Part shown: in pieces, positions 5,410 to 35,292 of the stretch
Numbering within the stretch: position 1 is the stretch's first letter
How the letters are laid out: the number at the start of each line of letters is the position of its first letter
Source of the DNA: Thermoplasmata archaeon
Lineage (GTDB): Archaea; Thermoplasmatota; Thermoplasmata; Lutacidiplasmatales; UBA184
Reading direction: 5' to 3'
DNA: 64,000 nt
Assembly (NCBI GenBank): GCA_035502455.1
Contig: DATJUI010000014.1
Location: 6,365-70,364, forward strand
Program-made: the position numbers and the translations under genes
Notes under the pieces: model-generated
What the model saw: only the letters and a program-made list of their open reading frames with translations
What the model was told of the DNA's origin: nothing
Databases searched by the model: none

Positions 5410-6392
5410 GCGGCGGCGTCCTCGTGGTCGCCCTCCCCGCCGAAGCCCCGGGAAGCGCGGCGCTCCGCGAGGCGGTCGGCGTCGCCCGCACCCTCGCGTC
5501 GGGGCGGCCGATCGAGGGGATCGCGCTCGGTTCGGCCGCCCGCGCCCAGGCCGAATCGCTGGCCCGGCTGGGCGTGGGCCGGGTCCACCTCGCCGAGGAG
5601 CCGAGCTGGGACGCCGCACCCGGCGGGGCGTGGGCCGTCGCGATCGCCGCCGCGTGGGACCGATCGGGGGCGGAGACGGTGGTGCTGCCCGGCTCGACGA
5701 CCGGCCGGGAGCTCGCGGGACGCCTCGCGGCGCGCGCCTCCGCCTCGGCCGCGACGGGCGTCACCCAGGTGGGCCGGAGCGCGGACGGGCTCGAGGTCCG
5801 GCGCCCCGTGTTCGGCGGGCGCGCCACCGAGACCCGGCGGCTCGCGGGCCCCCGCCAGGTGGTGGCGTTGCGCGCGCACGCGTTCCCGCCGGCCGAGGAG
5901 GCTCCCGTGCCGCTCGCGGCCGAGGCGATCGGCCCGGTGGAGGTGCCCGCGGCCGTCGCGGCCCCGCGCCGGCTCTCCGTCGTCGCCGCCGCCGCATCCA
6001 CCGGACCGGGCCTCGGCGACGCGGCGATCGTCGTCTCGGGCGGACGCGGCGTGCGCACCCCCGAGAACTTCGCCCTCGTGGAGGAGCTCGCCGCCGCGCT
6101 CGGCGCGGCGGTCGGGGCCTCCCGGGCCGTGACCGATGCCGGCTGGCGGCCGTCGACGTTCCAGGTCGGGCAGACCGGCCGGGCGGTCTCCCCGCAGCTG
6201 TACATCGCGATCGGGATCTCGGGCGCGATCCAGCACATCGTCGGCATGATCAGCTCCCGCGTGATCGTCGCGATCAACTCGGACGCGACGGCCCCGATCT
6301 TCAAGGTCGCCGACTACGGGATCGTGGGGGACCTCTTCCAGATCGTCCCGGCCCTCACCGCCGAGGTCCGTCGCGTGCGGGGACTCGGTTGA
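5406..6392 (+). CDS. etfA: Electron transfer flavoprotein alpha subunit
   Basis: GTGA overlap with etfB; [42 protein letters not shown]. Confidence 0.93.
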
Positions 6393-9367: not shown

Positions 9368-9799
9368 GTGCCCGCGACCCCGAACCCTCCGCCCGACCCC
9401 GGCGAGCCGGGACCGACCCCCGCGGAGGAGCCCGCGCCGACGGTCGAGGTCGTGGAGGGCGGCGAGGAGGTCGGACGGCTGCCGCTGCCCCGGCGCAATC
9501 GCGGCGAGGTGTTCGGGATCGCGAGCCAACTCCTCGGGGCGGCGCGGATCCGCGTGATGTGCGAGGACAACGTCTCGCGGATGGGCCGGATCACGGGGAA
9601 GATGAAGAAGAAGATGTGGATCCGGGAGGGCGACCTCCTGATCATCCGCCCGTGGGGGTTCCAGGAAGGGAAGGCGGACATCCTGTTCCGCTACAGCCGC
9701 ACCCAGTCGCAGTACCTCTCCCGGCGCAACCTCCTGCCCGCGTCGATGAACCTCTTCGCCACCCCGGACGCCCGCACCGACGCAACCCCCGCGACGTAG
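9368..9799 (+). CDS. eif1a: Translation initiation factor aIF-1A
   Basis: LLGAARIRVMCEDNVSRMGRITGKMKKKMWIREGDLLIIRPW. Confidence 0.95.
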   Translation: MPATPNPPPDPGEPGPTPAEEPAPTVEVVEGGEEVGRLPLPRRNRGEVFGIASQLLGAARIRVMCEDNVSRMGRITGKMKKKMWIREGDLLIIRPWGFQEGKADILFRYSRTQSQYLSRRNLLPASMNLFATPDARTDATPAT

Positions 9800-9806
9800 G
9801 AGCGCC

Positions 9807-11312
9807 ATGGCTCCCGCCTTCTCCCGCCCCCTCTCGGCGATCGAGATGGCGGTGGTCGAGCAGAACGCGGTCGCGCGCGGCGTCACGCTCGACGCGCTGA
9901 TGGAGAACGCGGGCCGGGCCGCGGCGGAGGAGGCGGTCCGGCACCTGCCGCCCGCGCCCGCCCGGGTCGCCGTCGTCGCCTCCACGGGGAACAACGGGGG
10001 CGACGGGACGTGCGCCGCCCACTACCTGCTCCAGTTCGGGTTCCAGCCCGAGGTCTGGCTCGTCCGTCCGCCGAGCGAGATCCGGTCGGGACCGGCGCTG
10101 CGCTGCTTCGAGCGGATCGCCGACCAGCTGCCGGTCCACGTCGGCGTCCCCGCTCCCGACGAGCTCCGGGCGTTCCCGCTCGTGCTCGACGCGCTGCTGG
10201 GCACGGGGCAGTCCGGCCCCCTGCGACCGCCGATCCGCGACGCCGTCGACGCCGTCCGACAGAGCGGGGCGCCGACGCTGGCGATCGACCTTCCGACAGG
10301 GACGGGGGACCCGCACGGGCTGCGGCCCCGGTGGACCGTGACGCTGACGGTCGTGAAGCGCGAGATGGACGCGGCGACCGCGGGCGAGGTCACCGTGCGC
10401 GACATCGGCATCCCGACGGAGGCCTGGGCCGCGACCGGCCCGGGGGAGTTCCTGTTCTTCCGGCCCCCCGATCCCCGTTCGGCACGGGGGCGGGCGGGGC
10501 GACTGATCGTCATCGGGGGCGGCCCGTACGCGGGCGCCCCGGCGCTCGCGGCCCTCTCCGCCCTGCGCTCGGGCGCCGAGCGGGCGACGGTGCTGGCCCC
10601 GGCCGGGGCGGCCGAGCGGATCCAGGGGTTCAGTCCCAACCTCATCGTCGTGCCGTTCGGGGTCGAGCGGTTCCGGCCGACCGACGTCGACGAGCTGCTC
10701 GCGTTCGTTCGGTCCGGCCGACCGAGCGCGATCGCGGTCGGGATGGGGGCGGGCGCCCACCCCGAGACGGTCCAGGCGCTGGGGGCGGTCGAGCGGGCGC
10801 TGGCGGGCGAGCTCCCCCTGGTCGTCGACGCGGACGGGCTCGCCGCCCTCCCGCGGCCCGAGGAGCTCCCCGCGGCGGCGACGCCGACCTCGATCGTGGC
10901 GACGCCGAACGCGGGCGAGTTCGTGCGGTACTTCCACGGGCCCCGGGAGGCGACCGGCGACGCGCGGCGGGAAGCGGCCCGGTCCGCCGCCGCCGCGCGT
11001 CGGCTCACGCTCGTGGTGAAGGGACCGACCGACCTGATCACGGACGGCGCGGACCTGTTCGAGAACCCGCACCACACTGCGGCGATGACCGTCGGCGGGC
11101 TCGGCGACGTGCTGGCCGGCGTGCTCGCGAGCCAGCTCGCCCAGGGGGTCCCGGCCCTCCACGCGGCCCGACTGGCGACCTACTGGGTCGGGGAAGCGGG
11201 GTTGAGAGCCGCGGCGACGCAGGGCTGGGGCCTCGTCGCGACCGACGTGATCGAGCGGCTGCCGACCGCGCTCGCGGAGGGCGCGGGGCACGCCCGACCC
11301 GAGAGCGGGTAG
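9807..11312 (+). CDS. nnr: Bifunctional NAD(P)H-hydrate epimerase/dehydratase (YjeF)
   Basis: LMENAG, GNNGGDG, DALLGTG, IGGGPYAGAP, VVDADG, MTVGGLGDVLAG. Confidence 0.92.
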   Translation: MAPAFSRPLSAIEMAVVEQNAVARGVTLDALMENAGRAAAEEAVRHLPPAPARVAVVASTGNNGGDGTCAAHYLLQFGFQPEVWLVRPPSEIRSGPALRCFERIADQLPVHVGVPAPDELRAFPLVLDALLGTGQSGPLRPPIRDAVDAVRQSGAPTLAIDLPTGTGDPHGLRPRWTVTLTVVKREMDAATAGEVTVRDIGIPTEAWAATGPGEFLFFRPPDPRSARGRAGRLIVIGGGPYAGAPALAALSALRSGAERATVLAPAGAAERIQGFSPNLIVVPFGVERFRPTDVDELLAFVRSGRPSAIAVGMGAGAHPETVQALGAVERALAGELPLVVDADGLAALPRPEELPAAATPTSIVATPNAGEFVRYFHGPREATGDARREAARSAAAARRLTLVVKGPTDLITDGADLFENPHHTAAMTVGGLGDVLAGVLASQLAQGVPALHAARLATYWVGEAGLRAAATQGWGLVATDVIERLPTALAEGAGHARPESG

Positions 11313-28859: not shown

Positions 28860-29090
28860 TCAGTCGTTCCCGGGCGCCCACCAGCCCCAGACGAAGAAGG
28901 CGACGAGCGCGCCGACGATCCCGATCGTCGTGCCGAGCACCTGGGGCGCGAGGGCCGGCAGTCCGACCCAGTACGAGATCTCGAAGACCGCACCCGCCGC
29001 GGCGAGGAGGGCGACCGCGAAGAACGCCACGAACGGCCCGACCCGGGTGCCGACGCGGGCGGACGGGGCGGCGGGCTCGCTCGGGCTCAT
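28860..29090 (-). CDS. Small two-helix membrane protein (76 aa), probable oxidase accessory subunit
   Basis: ATGA overlap with oxidase stop; MSPSEP...FVAFFAVALLAAAGAVFEISYWVG...TTIGIVGALVAFFVWGWWAPGND. Confidence 0.7.
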   Translation of the reverse strand: MSPSEPAAPSARVGTRVGPFVAFFAVALLAAAGAVFEISYWVGLPALAPQVLGTTIGIVGALVAFFVWGWWAPGND

Positions 29091-31810
29091 GCGGCGCTCA
29101 CCCACAGGACCCCCCACAGGCCCATCACGAGACCCGTCTGGACGCCCGAGCCGCTCCCGGACTCCCCGCTCGGATCGTACGAGTACGCGACCGGGTTCGT
29201 GAGCCCGTAGAGGTAGACGCCCGGCGCGAGCGTCGCGCTCACGGTCTCGGTCGCGTCGATCCGCAGGGGACCGCTCGAGACCCCGACGAGCCCGGTCGCG
29301 GGGTCGATCCGTTCGAGCTCGAACGGGTACGGCAGCGTGTAGTTGTGTTCGATCACGTACTGCTGCTGCGCGTTGGCCGCGGTCGAGGAGACGTTGACGA
29401 GGTAGTTGGTGATCCCGATCGAGGAGAGGGGAACCTCCCAGGTGAACGCGACGGGGCCGCCCGCGCCCGGCACGGTCGCGGCGAGCGTGGGGCCGGGGAC
29501 GGAGAAGTTGAACACGCCCTCCGGGTTCGCCACGAGGGACGCCGTCGCGGCCGTCACGACCGGGGGATCGTAGATGTCGCCCGCCCCCCCGTTCGCGGTG
29601 AAGTCGGCGAGGCTCTGCCCGGTCGCGCCCGGGACCGGAAGGACGATCAGCGCGGCCACGTCGACCCCGAACCACGGCCCGTCGTACTCTCCGTCGGGCG
29701 CCCCGTAGACGCCCGGTTGGGTCGGGGCCGCGAAGCTCGCGTACGACGTCGAGCCCGGCACGACCTGCGTATTGACGGGCGCCTGCTCGCGGAACGGGAG
29801 GTAGACGGACTGGGTCGCCCCCGAGGCGGTCATGTTGAGCTGCACCCATTGGCCCGCGTAGGCCACGATCGCGTTGTCGAACGTGCCGTTGATCGCCCCG
29901 CTCTCCGTCGCCGTCCAGTAGTACTGCTGCCCGTAGAGCGCGACGAACTCGGTGTCGGCCGGGTCGCCGCCGCTCCCCGAGATCCCGTTCGAGACCGAGA
30001 ACGCCCCGGGCGTGGAGGCCGTGACCGCGAAGGCGAGGAAGATCGCGACCGACGCGATCCAGGCCGCTTCGGCCCGCTCCCGCCGAGGCCGCGGGGCGCG
30101 CCGGGCGAACGGGAGATCGTGCACGGGCACGCGGGCGGCCGGGGGGGTGGTCGACTGCGCGGCGAGCCGGACCGCCTCGTCGAAGGAGAGTCCCGACGCG
30201 CTGAAGAGCGCGCCTCGCAAGACGGTCAGGAACCCGTTCGCGACGAGGAACAACTGGCCGACGAGCATCACGACGATGCCGGCGAACAGCAGCAGCTGGT
30301 ACTCGGTGATCGCGGGGACGATGGGGAGGATCACTTCGCGACGCAGGACGCCCAGGTTCCCGAGCTGGTCCATCGCGAGGACGATCGTCGTGCCGCCCAC
30401 CAGCGTGAACAGAAAGTGCACCTGGGCGAGCCGGGCCGAGAACCACCGGCGGCCGGTGAGGACCGGGAAGAACGCGTACAGGAGAGCGAAGCCGCCCGCG
30501 ACGATCGCCAGGATCGTGATCGCGTGAAAGTGCGCCAGCACGAACATGCTGTTGTGCACGTCGACGTCGGCCGGGATCGTCGCGTTGATCGGGCCGGTGA
30601 GGCCGCCGAAGATCGACCCCCCGAACGCGAGCGCCGAGAACAGAGCGACCGCGTTCCACTCCCACTGCGAACCGGGGACGCCCTTGAGCGTCATCCAGAC
30701 GGAGAAGAACGTGATCGCCGACGGGATGACGATCGCGAACGACAGGAACATCGTGATCCAGCTCGACCAGGCGGGGAGCGGCGTGAGGTACAGGTGGTGG
30801 ATCCCGAGCAGCGGCGTGAGGACCACGAACATGATCGCGGAGGCGACCGCGAACCGGTAGCTGTAGATCGGGCGGCGGGCGAGGATCGGGATCAGGACGT
30901 AGAGCCCGACGATCGGCAGGAGGAACAGCACGTAGACGATCGCATGCCCGAACATCCAGAAGACGACCTGGTTCGTGAGCGGGCTCAGCGCGACGCCGGC
31001 GTACGCCGCGAGCATGTCCCACCCCGCCGCGACGATCAGTGGCCCGTAGGTGAGCGGCATCAGCACGAGCGTGCCCATCAGGAACCAGAGGAAGACCGGG
31101 TAGCGCCGCCCGGCGGCCGCCGCTGCGTGCTGGCGGTACCAGTCGAGGACGTGGGCGGCCATCCACCACGTCCAGAGGAGCGCCGCCCCCGCGAGCGCGA
31201 TCCACCCGAGGAAGAAGATCGGGCTCACGACGTACGCGCTCGACCCGTTCACGCCGAGCGGCGAGAGGAAGTACCACCCGATCGCCGGGAAGTAGTTGTC
31301 GTTGAACGGGGCGAGGTAGATCGGCCCCTGCAGCAGGAGCATCGAGGCGTTGAGGAGGCCGACCGAGAGGTAGAGGGTCCACTTGCGCCGGGGCGTGATC
31401 CCGAGCGCGTTGATGAGCAGCAGGCCGAAGACGGCCATCTCGACCTGCTGGGCGAACCCGAACAGTTCGCGGATGCCGTGCAGCGTGATCGACGAGTAGA
31501 TCTCCTGCGTCGAGAGGTGGAGGTTGCTCTGCGTCGCGTACGCGACGACCTGGGTCTGGAACCCGAACGCGTCGAAGCCGCCGACCGCGCCCCAGACGAG
31601 CCCTGCGATCAGCATCAGCATCGTGATGCGGGTCATCCAGTCGCGCTGGAGCAGGAAGACCCGCTCGAACAGGCGCATCTTCGCGAGCCGCCGCCGGATC
31701 GCCTCTTCGGTGTCGTCGAGGAACTGGATCAGCGCGGGCGGTCGCTCGAAAACGGCGACGCCTTCGCCCTCGGCGCCGGTCTGTGATGGCCGAAGATCGG
31801 TCGCGGTCAC
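29087..31810 (-). CDS. B-family heme-copper oxygen reductase: subunit I fused to CuA-less subunit II and a further cupredoxin-like domain
   Basis: All six His ligands: TLHG, FGHAIVY (cross-link Tyr), GIHH, HNSMFVLAHFH; RR in LGVLRR; PSAIT; C-terminal TM helix plus two beta-rich domains. Confidence 0.9.
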   Translation of the reverse strand: MTATDLRPSQTGAEGEGVAVFERPPALIQFLDDTEEAIRRRLAKMRLFERVFLLQRDWMTRITMLMLIAGLVWGAVGGFDAFGFQTQVVAYATQSNLHLSTQEIYSSITLHGIRELFGFAQQVEMAVFGLLLINALGITPRRKWTLYLSVGLLNASMLLLQGPIYLAPFNDNYFPAIGWYFLSPLGVNGSSAYVVSPIFFLGWIALAGAALLWTWWMAAHVLDWYRQHAAAAAGRRYPVFLWFLMGTLVLMPLTYGPLIVAAGWDMLAAYAGVALSPLTNQVVFWMFGHAIVYVLFLLPIVGLYVLIPILARRPIYSYRFAVASAIMFVVLTPLLGIHHLYLTPLPAWSSWITMFLSFAIVIPSAITFFSVWMTLKGVPGSQWEWNAVALFSALAFGGSIFGGLTGPINATIPADVDVHNSMFVLAHFHAITILAIVAGGFALLYAFFPVLTGRRWFSARLAQVHFLFTLVGGTTIVLAMDQLGNLGVLRREVILPIVPAITEYQLLLFAGIVVMLVGQLFLVANGFLTVLRGALFSASGLSFDEAVRLAAQSTTPPAARVPVHDLPFARRAPRPRRERAEAAWIASVAIFLAFAVTASTPGAFSVSNGISGSGGDPADTEFVALYGQQYYWTATESGAINGTFDNAIVAYAGQWVQLNMTASGATQSVYLPFREQAPVNTQVVPGSTSYASFAAPTQPGVYGAPDGEYDGPWFGVDVAALIVLPVPGATGQSLADFTANGGAGDIYDPPVVTAATASLVANPEGVFNFSVPGPTLAATVPGAGGPVAFTWEVPLSSIGITNYLVNVSSTAANAQQQYVIEHNYTLPYPFELERIDPATGLVGVSSGPLRIDATETVSATLAPGVYLYGLTNPVAYSYDPSGESGSGSGVQTGLVMGLWGVLWVSAA

Positions 31811-32914: not shown

Positions 32915-34402
32915 CTATCCCGAGTCCACGAGCGGAGGCGCGGTCGTCCCGCGGGCCAGCGCCCGCCGATAGCCGATGTACGAGACCCCGTACCCCACGA
33001 GGGGGACGACCATGAGCACGGCCCCCGCACGGAGCGCCCCGTCGTTGTATCGGATCCCCATCCGCCAGCTCCCGACCGCCTGGCCGACGAAGCCGACCAG
33101 GGAGAAGCTCGCCCCGAGGAACACCAGCGGGGCGCCGAACAGCTCGGCGACAGGGGCGAGCCCGTACGCCGACGTCGCGAGCGTGACCCCCGTCAGGTAG
33201 AGAACGAGCCCCCCGACGGCGAAGGCGAGCCCCAGGAGGCCCACGAGGGTGAAGTAGGCCGGCGTCGTGAACGCCCGGGACGACGTCGACATCTTGCGGA
33301 ACCCGGAGAAGTAGACGAGGGACGACGCCGCCCCGAGCGCGGCGGCCGCGGCGAGCGCGAGGATCGCCCCGAGCGCATGGCGGTAGAGGAGCGTGACGTT
33401 CCCGGTCGCCGCCGGGTAGGCGAGCAGCGCGGCGACGAGCAGGGCCGCGCCCCCCACGAACAGGACCTGGGAGGCCGTCGCGGCGAGCGAGGCGTTGCGG
33501 AGCGAACGGACCCCGTCGCGCTCCGGGGCCTCGACCCCCTGGAGCAGGGCGGTCTCCCGCAGCGCCCCGATCCCGCGCACGAGGATGTACTCCACGAAGA
33601 TGATCCCGACGATGAAGAAGCTCGCCGGGTAGTTCGTCCACAGCGCCACGAACAGTCCGGCCCAGACGGCGCTCACGGCCACGAGCACGGAGACGAGCGC
33701 GGCCGTCAGCGAGCGCGACGTCAGCCGGACGGCGATCGCCGCGGGCGTGACCATGAGCGCGAAGATCAAGAGGACGCCGATGATCTGGACGGCGAAGGAG
33801 ATCACCACGGCCAGGAGGATCATGAAGACCAGGTTGAGGAGCGCGAGGGGCAGACCCTTCGCCTCGGCCACATCCTCGTCCAGCGACGTGAACAGCAGCG
33901 GGCGATAGATGAGCGCCAGGACGGCCAGGACCGCGAGGCTGGTCCAGAACGTCAGCACGACCTCCGAGGCGCTGATGCCGAGCACCTCCCCGAACAGGAT
34001 CGAGTACGCCTCCTGCGCGTAGCCGTTGTAGAGGCTGATGAACAGCAGGCCGAGCGCCAGCGAGAAGGCGAGCAGCGTGCCGATCGTGACGTCCCGGCTC
34101 GACGCCCGGTTCCCGAGGACGGCCATGCCGCTCCCGGTCACGCTCGTGAAGATCAGCAGACCGTAGACCGGATTGGCGCCGACGAGGACCGCGGCGGCGG
34201 CGCCGGAGAACCCGGAGTGGCCGAGGGCGTGCGCGGCGAACGCCGAGCGGCGGAGCACGACGAAGTACCCGACGAGTCCGGCGAGGATCCCGATGATCGT
34301 CCCGGCCTCCATCGCATTGCGCATGAACTCGAACGACCAGAGGAGCCGAAGGTCGGTCACGAGATTCCAGCTCCACGGGATCCCGCTCCACCCGCCGCTC
34401 AT
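32915..34402 (-). CDS. Zn/Mn ABC permease (ZnuB-like) with C-terminal membrane extension (DUF973-like)
   Basis: FAAHALGHSGFSG, ILFGEVLGIS, FTSLDEDVAEAKG, GVLLIFALMVTPAA; about 200 extra aa ending WRMGIRYNDGALRAGAVL; ATGA overlap. Confidence 0.85.
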   Translation of the reverse strand: MSGGWSGIPWSWNLVTDLRLLWSFEFMRNAMEAGTIIGILAGLVGYFVVLRRSAFAAHALGHSGFSGAAAAVLVGANPVYGLLIFTSVTGSGMAVLGNRASSRDVTIGTLLAFSLALGLLFISLYNGYAQEAYSILFGEVLGISASEVVLTFWTSLAVLAVLALIYRPLLFTSLDEDVAEAKGLPLALLNLVFMILLAVVISFAVQIIGVLLIFALMVTPAAIAVRLTSRSLTAALVSVLVAVSAVWAGLFVALWTNYPASFFIVGIIFVEYILVRGIGALRETALLQGVEAPERDGVRSLRNASLAATASQVLFVGGAALLVAALLAYPAATGNVTLLYRHALGAILALAAAAALGAASSLVYFSGFRKMSTSSRAFTTPAYFTLVGLLGLAFAVGGLVLYLTGVTLATSAYGLAPVAELFGAPLVFLGASFSLVGFVGQAVGSWRMGIRYNDGALRAGAVLMVVPLVGYGVSYIGYRRALARGTTAPPLVDSG

Positions 34403-35292
34403 CCGCCCTCCTCGCCGCGATCGTCCTCGCCCCCGACGATCACGATGTTGCCCCGGGAGTCGTGCAGGACCTCGACGTGGAATCCGTAGAGCTCGGAGAG
34501 CCGCTCCGAGGTGAGGACGTCGGCCGGAGATCCGACCGCGACGCGTCCGTTCGCGATGTAGATCACCTTGTTGAGGCACTGGATCATCGGATTGATGTCG
34601 TGCGCCACCAGCAGGGTCGTCACGCCCCGCGACCGGACCAGGCCGTGGATCGTCTCGACCAGCTCCCGGCTCCGGCGGAGGTCGAGGTTCGAGAGCGGCT
34701 CGTCGAGCAGCAGCATGTCGGGGTTCCCCACGAGCGCCTCGGCGAGGAAGATCCGCTGCAGCTCCCCGCCGGACAGCGCGCCCAGGGACCGGTCGCTCAG
34801 CTCCGACGCGCCGACCGCCTCCAGGGCCTGTTCCGCGGCCTCCCGCTCCGCTCGCCAGTCGAGGCGGGGGCCCCACTGCAACGGTCGCCACCGCTTCCCG
34901 GGACCCCAGCGGGCCCCCGGGTACGCGAGGCGCACGAGCTTGTCGCACGCGATGTGGGTCTCCTGGTCGAGGGTGTGCCGCTGCGGGACGTAGCCGATCC
35001 GATAGTTGCCCCGGTGGGGCGGGGCCCCGAGCACGGAGAGCCCCCCGCTCGACGGCCAGTGGAGCCCGAGGAGCATCCGGAACAGGGTCGTCTTGCCCGC
35101 GCCGTTCGGCCCGATCACCGCGACGAACTCACCGGGCTGGATGTCGAACGTCGCGTCCTTCCAGACGAGCCGGTTCCGGTAGCGCACCTCGAGCCGGTCC
35201 GCCCGGATCGCGGGCGGACCCGGCCGCGCGGCCGCGGCGTCCGGCGACTCGGAGACCGGCGGGTGGGCCGGGAGCAGGATTTCGGCGCCCAC
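34399..35292 (-). CDS. Zn/Mn ABC transporter ATP-binding protein
   Basis: GPNGAGKTT, IGYVPQ, LSGGELQR, LLDEP, VAHD. Confidence 0.93.
   Translation of the reverse strand: MGAEILLPAHPPVSESPDAAAARPGPPAIRADRLEVRYRNRLVWKDATFDIQPGEFVAVIGPNGAGKTTLFRMLLGLHWPSSGGLSVLGAPPHRGNYRIGYVPQRHTLDQETHIACDKLVRLAYPGARWGPGKRWRPLQWGPRLDWRAEREAAEQALEAVGASELSDRSLGALSGGELQRIFLAEALVGNPDMLLLDEPLSNLDLRRSRELVETIHGLVRSRGVTTLLVAHDINPMIQCLNKVIYIANGRVAVGSPADVLTSERLSELYGFHVEVLHDSRGNIVIVGGEDDRGEEGG

Follow-up and report, generated by a model that had tools for sequence, protein, structure and literature searches.

A fused DoxB-DoxC oxidase from a Thermoplasmata archaeon, probably a quinol oxidase, with an acidic pocket at the former CuA site

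We examined a window of 64,000 nucleotides from a Thermoplasmata archaeon (positions 6,365 to 70,364 of contig DATJUI010000014.1, assembly GCA_035502455.1), which carries on its minus strand a heme-copper oxidase gene in which the subunit I and subunit II parts share a single reading frame. On the basis of its sequence, the encoded protein joins DoxB and DoxC in one fused chain related to the Sulfolobales terminal quinol oxidase DoxBCE, and the site that holds the CuA centre in canonical subunit II is lined here with acidic residues. The fused doxB-doxC gene (P0001; 29087..31810, minus strand, in window positions, as are all coordinates below) was delimited from its open reading frame (ORF) and translation, starts with GTG and encodes 907 amino acids (aa). 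A full-length AlphaFold (AF2) model (predicted local distance difference test, pLDDT, 86.3; predicted template modelling score, pTM, 0.87) contains twelve helices, a linker, a thirteenth helix and two beta-rich domains. The DoxB-like heme-copper oxidase subunit I domain, with its 12 transmembrane (TM) helices, occupies approximately residues 1-560 (30131..31810, minus strand); Pfam places COX1 on residues 61-511 (3.5e-67), and the NCBIfam subunit I models match only below threshold. The set of heme and CuB histidines and the cross-link tyrosine is complete (H111, H289, Y293, H338, H339, H427 and H429) and is invariant in an alignment of 64 sequences of the fused family. The invariant cross-link Tyr and the three CuB His rule out a nitric oxide reductase (criterion of PMC11214002).

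The subunit I domain is followed by a cytoplasmic linker and the thirteenth TM helix, which anchors the subunit II part (approximately residues 561-611, with the AF2 helix at 574-611; 29978..30130, minus strand). This segment, which corresponds in alignments to the N-terminal TM helix of DoxC-like proteins that stand alone, contains an RRERAE..W motif; W584 of this motif never varies, and E581 is conserved in 90% of sequences or more. The additional helix would place the C-terminal domains outside the cell, so the fusion is topologically natural. Beyond it lie a first cupredoxin domain, which is a homologue of the CuA domain without CuA ligands (approximately residues 612-726; 29633..29977, minus strand), and a second beta-sandwich, cupredoxin-like domain defined from AF2 strands (approximately residues 727-907, ending in VMGLWGVLWV; 29090..29632, minus strand). 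The second domain has no Cys or His ligands and aligns colinearly with the C-terminal half of DoxC-like proteins that stand alone; the model of the two domains together shows a weak likeness to two-cupredoxin proteins. Overlapping the oxidase stop codon is an ORF for a 76-aa membrane protein with two helices (28860..29090, minus strand), a likely DoxE homologue, which matched no Pfam family.

To place the C-terminal part, a profile was searched against 1.84 billion representatives. It retrieved stand-alone proteins of 314-359 aa that span the whole profile and a fused 865-aa protein from a Thermoprotei metagenome-assembled genome (MAG). Among the stand-alone clusters is a Sulfolobaceae 'oxidase' cluster (E=9e-23), for which the databases give the names "oxidase [Saccharolobus sp./Sulfolobaceae archaeon]" and "terminal oxidase subunit". 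A relative of the Saccharolobus/Sulfolobaceae 'oxidase', 81% identical to it, is encoded at the metagenomic locus L072, in an operon of four ORFs of 589, 354, 63 and 64 aa that correspond to subunit I, a DoxC-like protein and two small hydrophobic proteins. The first two ORFs are 4 nt apart, the third follows within 10 nt and the fourth after approximately 90 nt. This order and these sizes fit doxBCE(F), given that the doxBCE operon of Acidianus ambivalens presumably encodes proteins of 587, 344 and 64 aa. The window protein is 38% identical to the L072 subunit I over 526 aa (E=2e-112), compared with structure-based identities of approximately 20-24% to A-type, ba3 and bo3 chains, and its residues 576-905 align colinearly with the entire 354-aa product of the second L072 gene (30% identity, E=5e-35). 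For the 76-aa downstream ORF, sequence support is weak (30% identity to the 63-aa L072 ORF, E=3e-4) and positional support is good, with a homologue lying immediately after the oxidase in 28 related loci. The connection to A. ambivalens DoxBCE thus runs through Sulfolobaceae/Saccharolobus homologues and operon structure. DoxB and DoxC are not separate here but share one frame of 907 aa, as they do in at least 117 clusters, and a search for split forms of the fused clade gave only contig-end fragments from short contigs. The homology to DoxB and DoxC, together with the DoxE-like downstream gene, gives the enzyme its label, and at the level of sequence the assignment as a quinol oxidase is well supported. 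An earlier note on this DNA had proposed a quinol oxidase lacking CuA, pointing to the loss of CuA in CyoA, QoxA and SoxA; the quinol oxidase is supported, through homology to DoxBCE, and the protein is a DoxB-DoxC fusion related to that enzyme and not to CyoA, QoxA or SoxA. According to PMC5461723, the terminal quinol oxidase DoxBCE has been purified from A. ambivalens, and of DoxC it says that the "function is not clear".

The first C-terminal domain has a cupredoxin fold homologous to the periplasmic domain of subunit II and stands behind an N-terminal TM anchor. In an AlphaFold model of residues 613-907 (pLDDT 89.6), the best fold matches are subunit II cupredoxin domains, with VIA Z scores of 12.3 for CyoA (1cyx), 11.4 for bo3 (7xmc_B), 11.0 for ba3 (1ehk_B) and 9.8 for QoxA; the model superposes on ba3 1ehk_B with a root-mean-square deviation (rmsd) of 2.1 over 96 residues and, by Foldseek, on Thermus thermophilus caa3 subunit II (2yev_B) with an rmsd of 2.6 Å over 113 columns. 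The comparison with ba3 is at the level of fold, and the residue register was taken from caa3 and from Thermoplasmata subunit II. A HMMER profile built from 32 homologous domains matches 2yev_B at E=0.0027 without gaps across the ligand loop, pairing D706 and D710 with the two Cys, E708 with Glu, F714 with His, D717 with Met and Q667 with the His of DVIHSF. Identical equivalences were obtained with hhalign against 13 CuA-bearing Thermoplasmata subunit II proteins, namely the CTEFCGEFHGTM protein encoded on another contig of the same genome and twelve others of the class (probability 97-98%, E=1.5e-10 to 4.5e-12). Single-sequence and family searches were less sensitive: Pfam COX2 (PF00116) matched neither the protein at E<=1, nor the 32 domain sequences at E<=10, nor this locus in the genome scan; Pfam returned only chance matches on the 32 domain sequences, and the C-terminal 337 aa, searched as a single sequence against the PDB, gave no match at E<=10.

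In this register the CuA ligand set H...C-x-E-x-C-x3-H-x2-M is represented by Q667, D706, E708, D710, F714 and D717, and the Glu alone is kept. The former ligand loop PGVYGAPDGEYDGPWFGVD spans residues 699-717 (29660..29716, minus strand), and Q667, which takes the position of the first CuA His in both the HMMER profile and hhalign alignments (29810..29812, minus strand), lies within ATQSVY (residues 665-670; 29801-29818). The claim that every side-chain ligand of CuA has been replaced in this register is therefore confirmed, by the caa3 profile match as well as by the alignment with Thermoplasmata subunit II. Three of the replacements are Asp, as had been proposed, but the acidic count was one too low. 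The position that supplies a backbone carbonyl, which is Gln in ba3 and Glu in the CxExC of A-type enzymes, is an invariant Glu here, and the pocket accordingly has four acidic residues and not three.

The protein search yielded at least 155 homologue clusters of approximately 900 aa, all from Thermoplasmata MAGs, and 53 loci were collected on genome contigs, Candidatus Lutacidiplasma silvani included. Across the 117 full-length clusters, position 667 is Gln in 96, Glu in 11, Gly in 5 and Asp in 2; 706 is Asp in 97, Asn in 19 and Glu in 1; and 710 is Asp in 90 and Asn in 27. E708 is present in all 117 and G711, P712 and W713 are likewise invariant, while F714 is found in 114 and position 717 is Asp in 115 and Asn in 2. 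Expressed as motif states, QDGEDFQD accounts for 72 clusters, QDGEDFVD (the type of the window protein) for 8, ENAEN or ENSEN for 11, QNAEN for 4, GDSEN for 4 and DDGEN for 2. Each pocket thus holds two to four carboxylates, with residues that offer oxygen donors at these positions nearly always, and a carboxylate at 667 occurs mostly where 706 and 710 are amides. These states imply that a carboxylate shifts between 667 and 706/710. Mutual information used to seek contact partners of D706 and D710 gave only a clade-wide, phylogenetic signal. The earlier note had tied its case to conservation of the Asp residues among homologues. Within the fused family this holds for oxygen donors, most clearly at 717, but not for Asp in the strict sense, since 706 and 710 switch between Asp and Asn; in stand-alone DoxC the three positions vary (N/G/S, N/D/S/T and Q/E/H/S), with Asn, Gln, Ser and Thr predominating. 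The 865-aa Thermoprotei protein (P0138, from the phylum Thermoproteota) is also a DoxB-DoxC fusion; its loop positions read N, E, N, Y and M, and so Met is kept at the Met-ligand position. The fusion has either several origins or a history of transfer between phyla. In a few members the reading frame is interrupted: the oxidase genes of two MFD-bin loci (L051 and L056, both at ~9700-10700) contain several frameshifts or stops and that of genome G224 has one in-frame TAA; these interruptions reflect either indel errors made in assembling high-GC sequence or the decay of the copies.

The subunit I part provides further indications of the electron donor. The D-channel loop is deleted, GHAIVY lacks the Glu found elsewhere in HPEVY, and Thr367 stands where CyoB and the A1 enzyme of the same genome have the K-channel Lys. 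We take S364, T367, S370 and Y304 to be equivalents of the single-channel residues of ba3, relying on presumed ba3 numbering. An H-x3-Y motif, the lack of a D channel and a Ser/Thr/Tyr analogue of the K channel together make up a pattern that appears B-family-like. Two invariant residues, D80 and E103, which have equivalents in the L072 subunit I, align with D75 and H98 of Escherichia coli CyoB, positions at which Tyr and Val stand in the canonical subunit I that this genome also encodes; CyoB D75 and H98 are presumably quinone-site residues. That canonical enzyme is a second, A1-type oxidase on contig 6 (~271-282 kb; L001 and L002), with HPEVY in subunit I and CTEFCGEFHGTM in subunit II. Its genes cluster with those for cytochrome b, a Rieske protein and a pair of blue-copper proteins anchored in the membrane (with CMEPEHFQSGM and CEIPGHFQAGM as their ligand loops). 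The genome, which is 93.8% complete, yielded no cytochrome bd, and no redox-partner gene is a conserved neighbour of the fused gene in the related loci. A branch that oxidises quinol directly would fit all four observations, namely the quinone-site residues, the separate CuA oxidase, the lack of cytochrome bd and the lack of a partner gene.

Comparison with characterised systems places the protein closest to DoxBCE, with which it shares the order of subunit I, a protein of approximately 350 aa (an N-terminal TM helix followed by two beta domains) and a small hydrophobic protein. The 350-aa DoxC-like protein ends in VMGLWG..LV, as does the window protein; the GE[YF]xGP[WLF][FY] loop without Cys or His is common to both and is the only constant core in the wider DoxC family, and subunit I has in both a P-side insertion with a DNYF core (F[DN]DNYF) and the motifs GHAIVY and HN[ST]. 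Here, however, the two parts form one polypeptide, and the pair of additional helices at the C-terminus of the L072 subunit I is absent; the host is a soil archaeon of the Thermoplasmata with high GC content and not a Sulfolobales thermoacidophile; and the pocket has three Asp with Gln at the first His position, in contrast to Asn, Asn or Asp, and Gln with Thr or Ala in the Sulfolobaceae type. The outward-facing insertion, in the loop between helices III and IV of subunit I (residues 143-177; 31280-31384), contains an invariant PFNDNYFP..GW (P168-P175, G178, W179) that AlphaFold models with a pLDDT below 50 despite its conservation; the Sulfolobaceae-type DoxB-like protein shares the DNYF core (as GFDNYF), and the insertion may contact the cupredoxin domain or a ligand. 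E. coli bo3 CyoA, the best structural match, is likewise the cupredoxin of a quinol oxidase without CuA and likewise has Phe, preceded by GP, for the second His (YSGPGFSGM in CyoA and YDGPWFGQD here). In contrast to the window protein, CyoA has Asn, Ser, Ser and Ser at the first His, Cys, Glu and Cys, retains Met and has no acidic residue; the enzyme it belongs to is of the A family, has both D and K channels and is built of separate subunits, a second beta domain is lacking, and the sequence relationship of CyoA to the window protein is very weak (hhalign E=0.11). Subunit II of T. thermophilus ba3 and caa3 shares the fold and the ungapped loop length, and the E-x-x-W in the subunit II helix of the window protein is a ba3-like feature, but these enzymes bind CuA and oxidise cytochrome c, whereas all five side-chain ligands are replaced in the window protein. 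SoxA of Sulfolobus SoxABCD, a CuA-less archaeal subunit II, gives the sole NCBIfam match of the domain (NF041074, residues 645-711, E=4.3e-5). This match reaches only 23 bits against a cut-off of 110 bits, SoxA is a single domain of approximately 150 aa, and no gene for a SoxC-type cytochrome lies near the fused gene. Loss of CuA ligands was also seen in a protein of another kind, P0141 (326 aa), in which a cytochrome c domain (CASCH) is joined to subunit II. Asn replaces both CuA Cys and Tyr the second His (NVEYNGPSY), but the first His and Met are kept; the protein resembles a subunit II of the caa3 type that lacks a binuclear CuA site.

We consider it likely that the protein is a DoxBC quinol oxidase whose pseudo-subunit II comprises a redox-inert cupredoxin with a polar pocket, maintained by selection, at the old CuA site. 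The enzyme would act as a terminal quinol:O2 oxidoreductase in which membrane quinol hands electrons to the low-spin heme in the subunit I part without an intermediate, and since such a transfer would make a CuA relay unnecessary, the cupredoxin domain would be redox-inert. The former metal pocket, which in canonical enzymes rests on subunit I above the hemes, would now be filled by selected oxygen-donor side chains forming a network that keeps the ligand loop in shape, with E708 and D717 fixed, Asp or Asn at 706 and 710, and Gln or Glu at 667. Bound water and R674, whose invariance is confined to the fused family, may be part of this network, as may, alternatively, a non-redox cation. The triple Asp would then be a lineage-specific form of a pocket that is lined by amides and hydroxyls in Sulfolobales DoxC. 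Some points weigh against this reading. L072 is identified as doxBCE from gene order, presumed sizes and database names and not from A. ambivalens sequences; the quinone-site alignment joins very distant subunit I proteins and could be off by a turn; and up to four buried carboxylates need a counter-charge, for which a cation is at least as good an explanation as a network of hydrogen bonds. The counter-charge could be a cation, shared protons or Arg.

That the acidic cluster may bind Mg, Ca or Mn was the suggestion of the earlier note, and in its present form, a redox-inert cation (Ca2+, Mg2+, Mn2+, or Na+/K+) held by Q667, D706, E708, D710 and D717, we regard it as possible but doubtful. Such a cation could take the place of CuA at the interface with subunit I, giving the ligand loop its structural centre, or could form part of a proton or water exit route. 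All five positions that converge on CuA carry oxygen-donor side chains in nearly every member, and the exchanges of Asp with Asn and of Gln with Glu retain the donor atoms, as is typical of Ca and Mg sites. The modelled loop has a pLDDT of approximately 79-83, compared with 94-97 in the surrounding strands, which would fit an absent ligand, and the close packing of carboxylates calls for positive charge. E708 aligns, moreover, with the Glu of A-type oxidases that we take to be a Mg ligand; H419-N420 of subunit I, however, correspond to the HNS motif of CyoB and not to the His-Asp pair that presumably provides Mg ligands in A-type enzymes. Retention of an A-type Mg site by H419-N420 and E708 was considered separately and is weakened, CyoB also having HNS and the CuA enzyme of the same genome H-G. 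The formal charge of the pocket varies between clades from approximately -2 to -4, and the residues at the three Asp positions differ in stand-alone DoxC relatives, as listed above, and include Met in the fused Thermoprotei protein, so a cation site would not be a general feature of DoxC. The window also encodes a Mn/Zn-type ABC transporter close to the oxidase, which is not a conserved neighbour. Its ABC-3 (ZnuB/MntB-type) permease gene (32915-34948, minus strand) encodes a C-terminal DUF973 domain (Pfam, 5.6e-8) and shares its operon with ZnuC-like and ZnuA-like genes and a DtxR-family repressor gene. A link between this DtxR-regulated ZnuABC/Mn-type transporter and a Mn site in the oxidase was rejected, the neighbourhood being found in 1 of 53 loci and lying approximately 5 kb from the oxidase.

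The carboxylates sit where CuA feeds heme a in canonical enzymes, and carboxylate clusters bind Fe2+ in multicopper ferroxidases; a metal-oxidising oxidase, in which redox-active Fe2+ or Mn2+ bound in the pocket feeds the low-spin heme from outside the cell, seems to us very improbable all the same. The position of the carboxylates is circumstantial evidence, as is the origin of the hosts in soil, peat and acidic sites, which is taken from MAG names and from excerpts of PMC9287336. Against it, the homologous DoxBCE is a quinol oxidase, Phe replaces the His that wires CuA to heme a, a fifth of the family has Asn in place of D706 and D710, and the conserved neighbours include no iron-oxidation genes. 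The Asp residues might instead have no specific role, having drifted to hydrophilic residues after the loss of CuA, in which case their conservation would reflect the shallow depth of a family confined to one taxonomic family of the class, and the differences at these positions in distant DoxC relatives would be expected. We find this improbable as well, since at 50-55% overall identity (mean column identity 65%) E708, G711, P712 and W713 are invariant and D717 nearly so, and since 706 and 710 take only Asp, Asn or Glu, a constraint that exceeds that on the surrounding loop residues.

The C-terminal part occurs in 13 of 37 sampled genomes of the family to which the window belongs (12 of 36 when the unpublished genome G212 is set aside) and in none of 264 genomes from 32 other families of the class. 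The hosts presumably belong to the order Lutacidiplasmatales, since their family includes Ca. Lutacidiplasma silvani. In the excerpts of the description of this order (PMC9287336), complex IV is represented by an A1-type locus only. With its acidified former CuA pocket, the fused DoxBC oxidase is a variation on a known enzyme, and it refines annotation without introducing a new mechanism. It places DoxC as a two-cupredoxin pseudo-subunit II, the first domain of which aligns without gaps with the CuA loop, and supplies GE[YF]xGP[WLF][FY] as a signature for the family. If the acidic pocket does bind metal, this would be an unusual conversion of one metal site into another within a respiratory enzyme. 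For the organisms themselves, the findings suggest that this family of soil Thermoplasmata has a second respiratory branch leading from the quinol pool, beside the A1 oxidase fed by blue-copper proteins.

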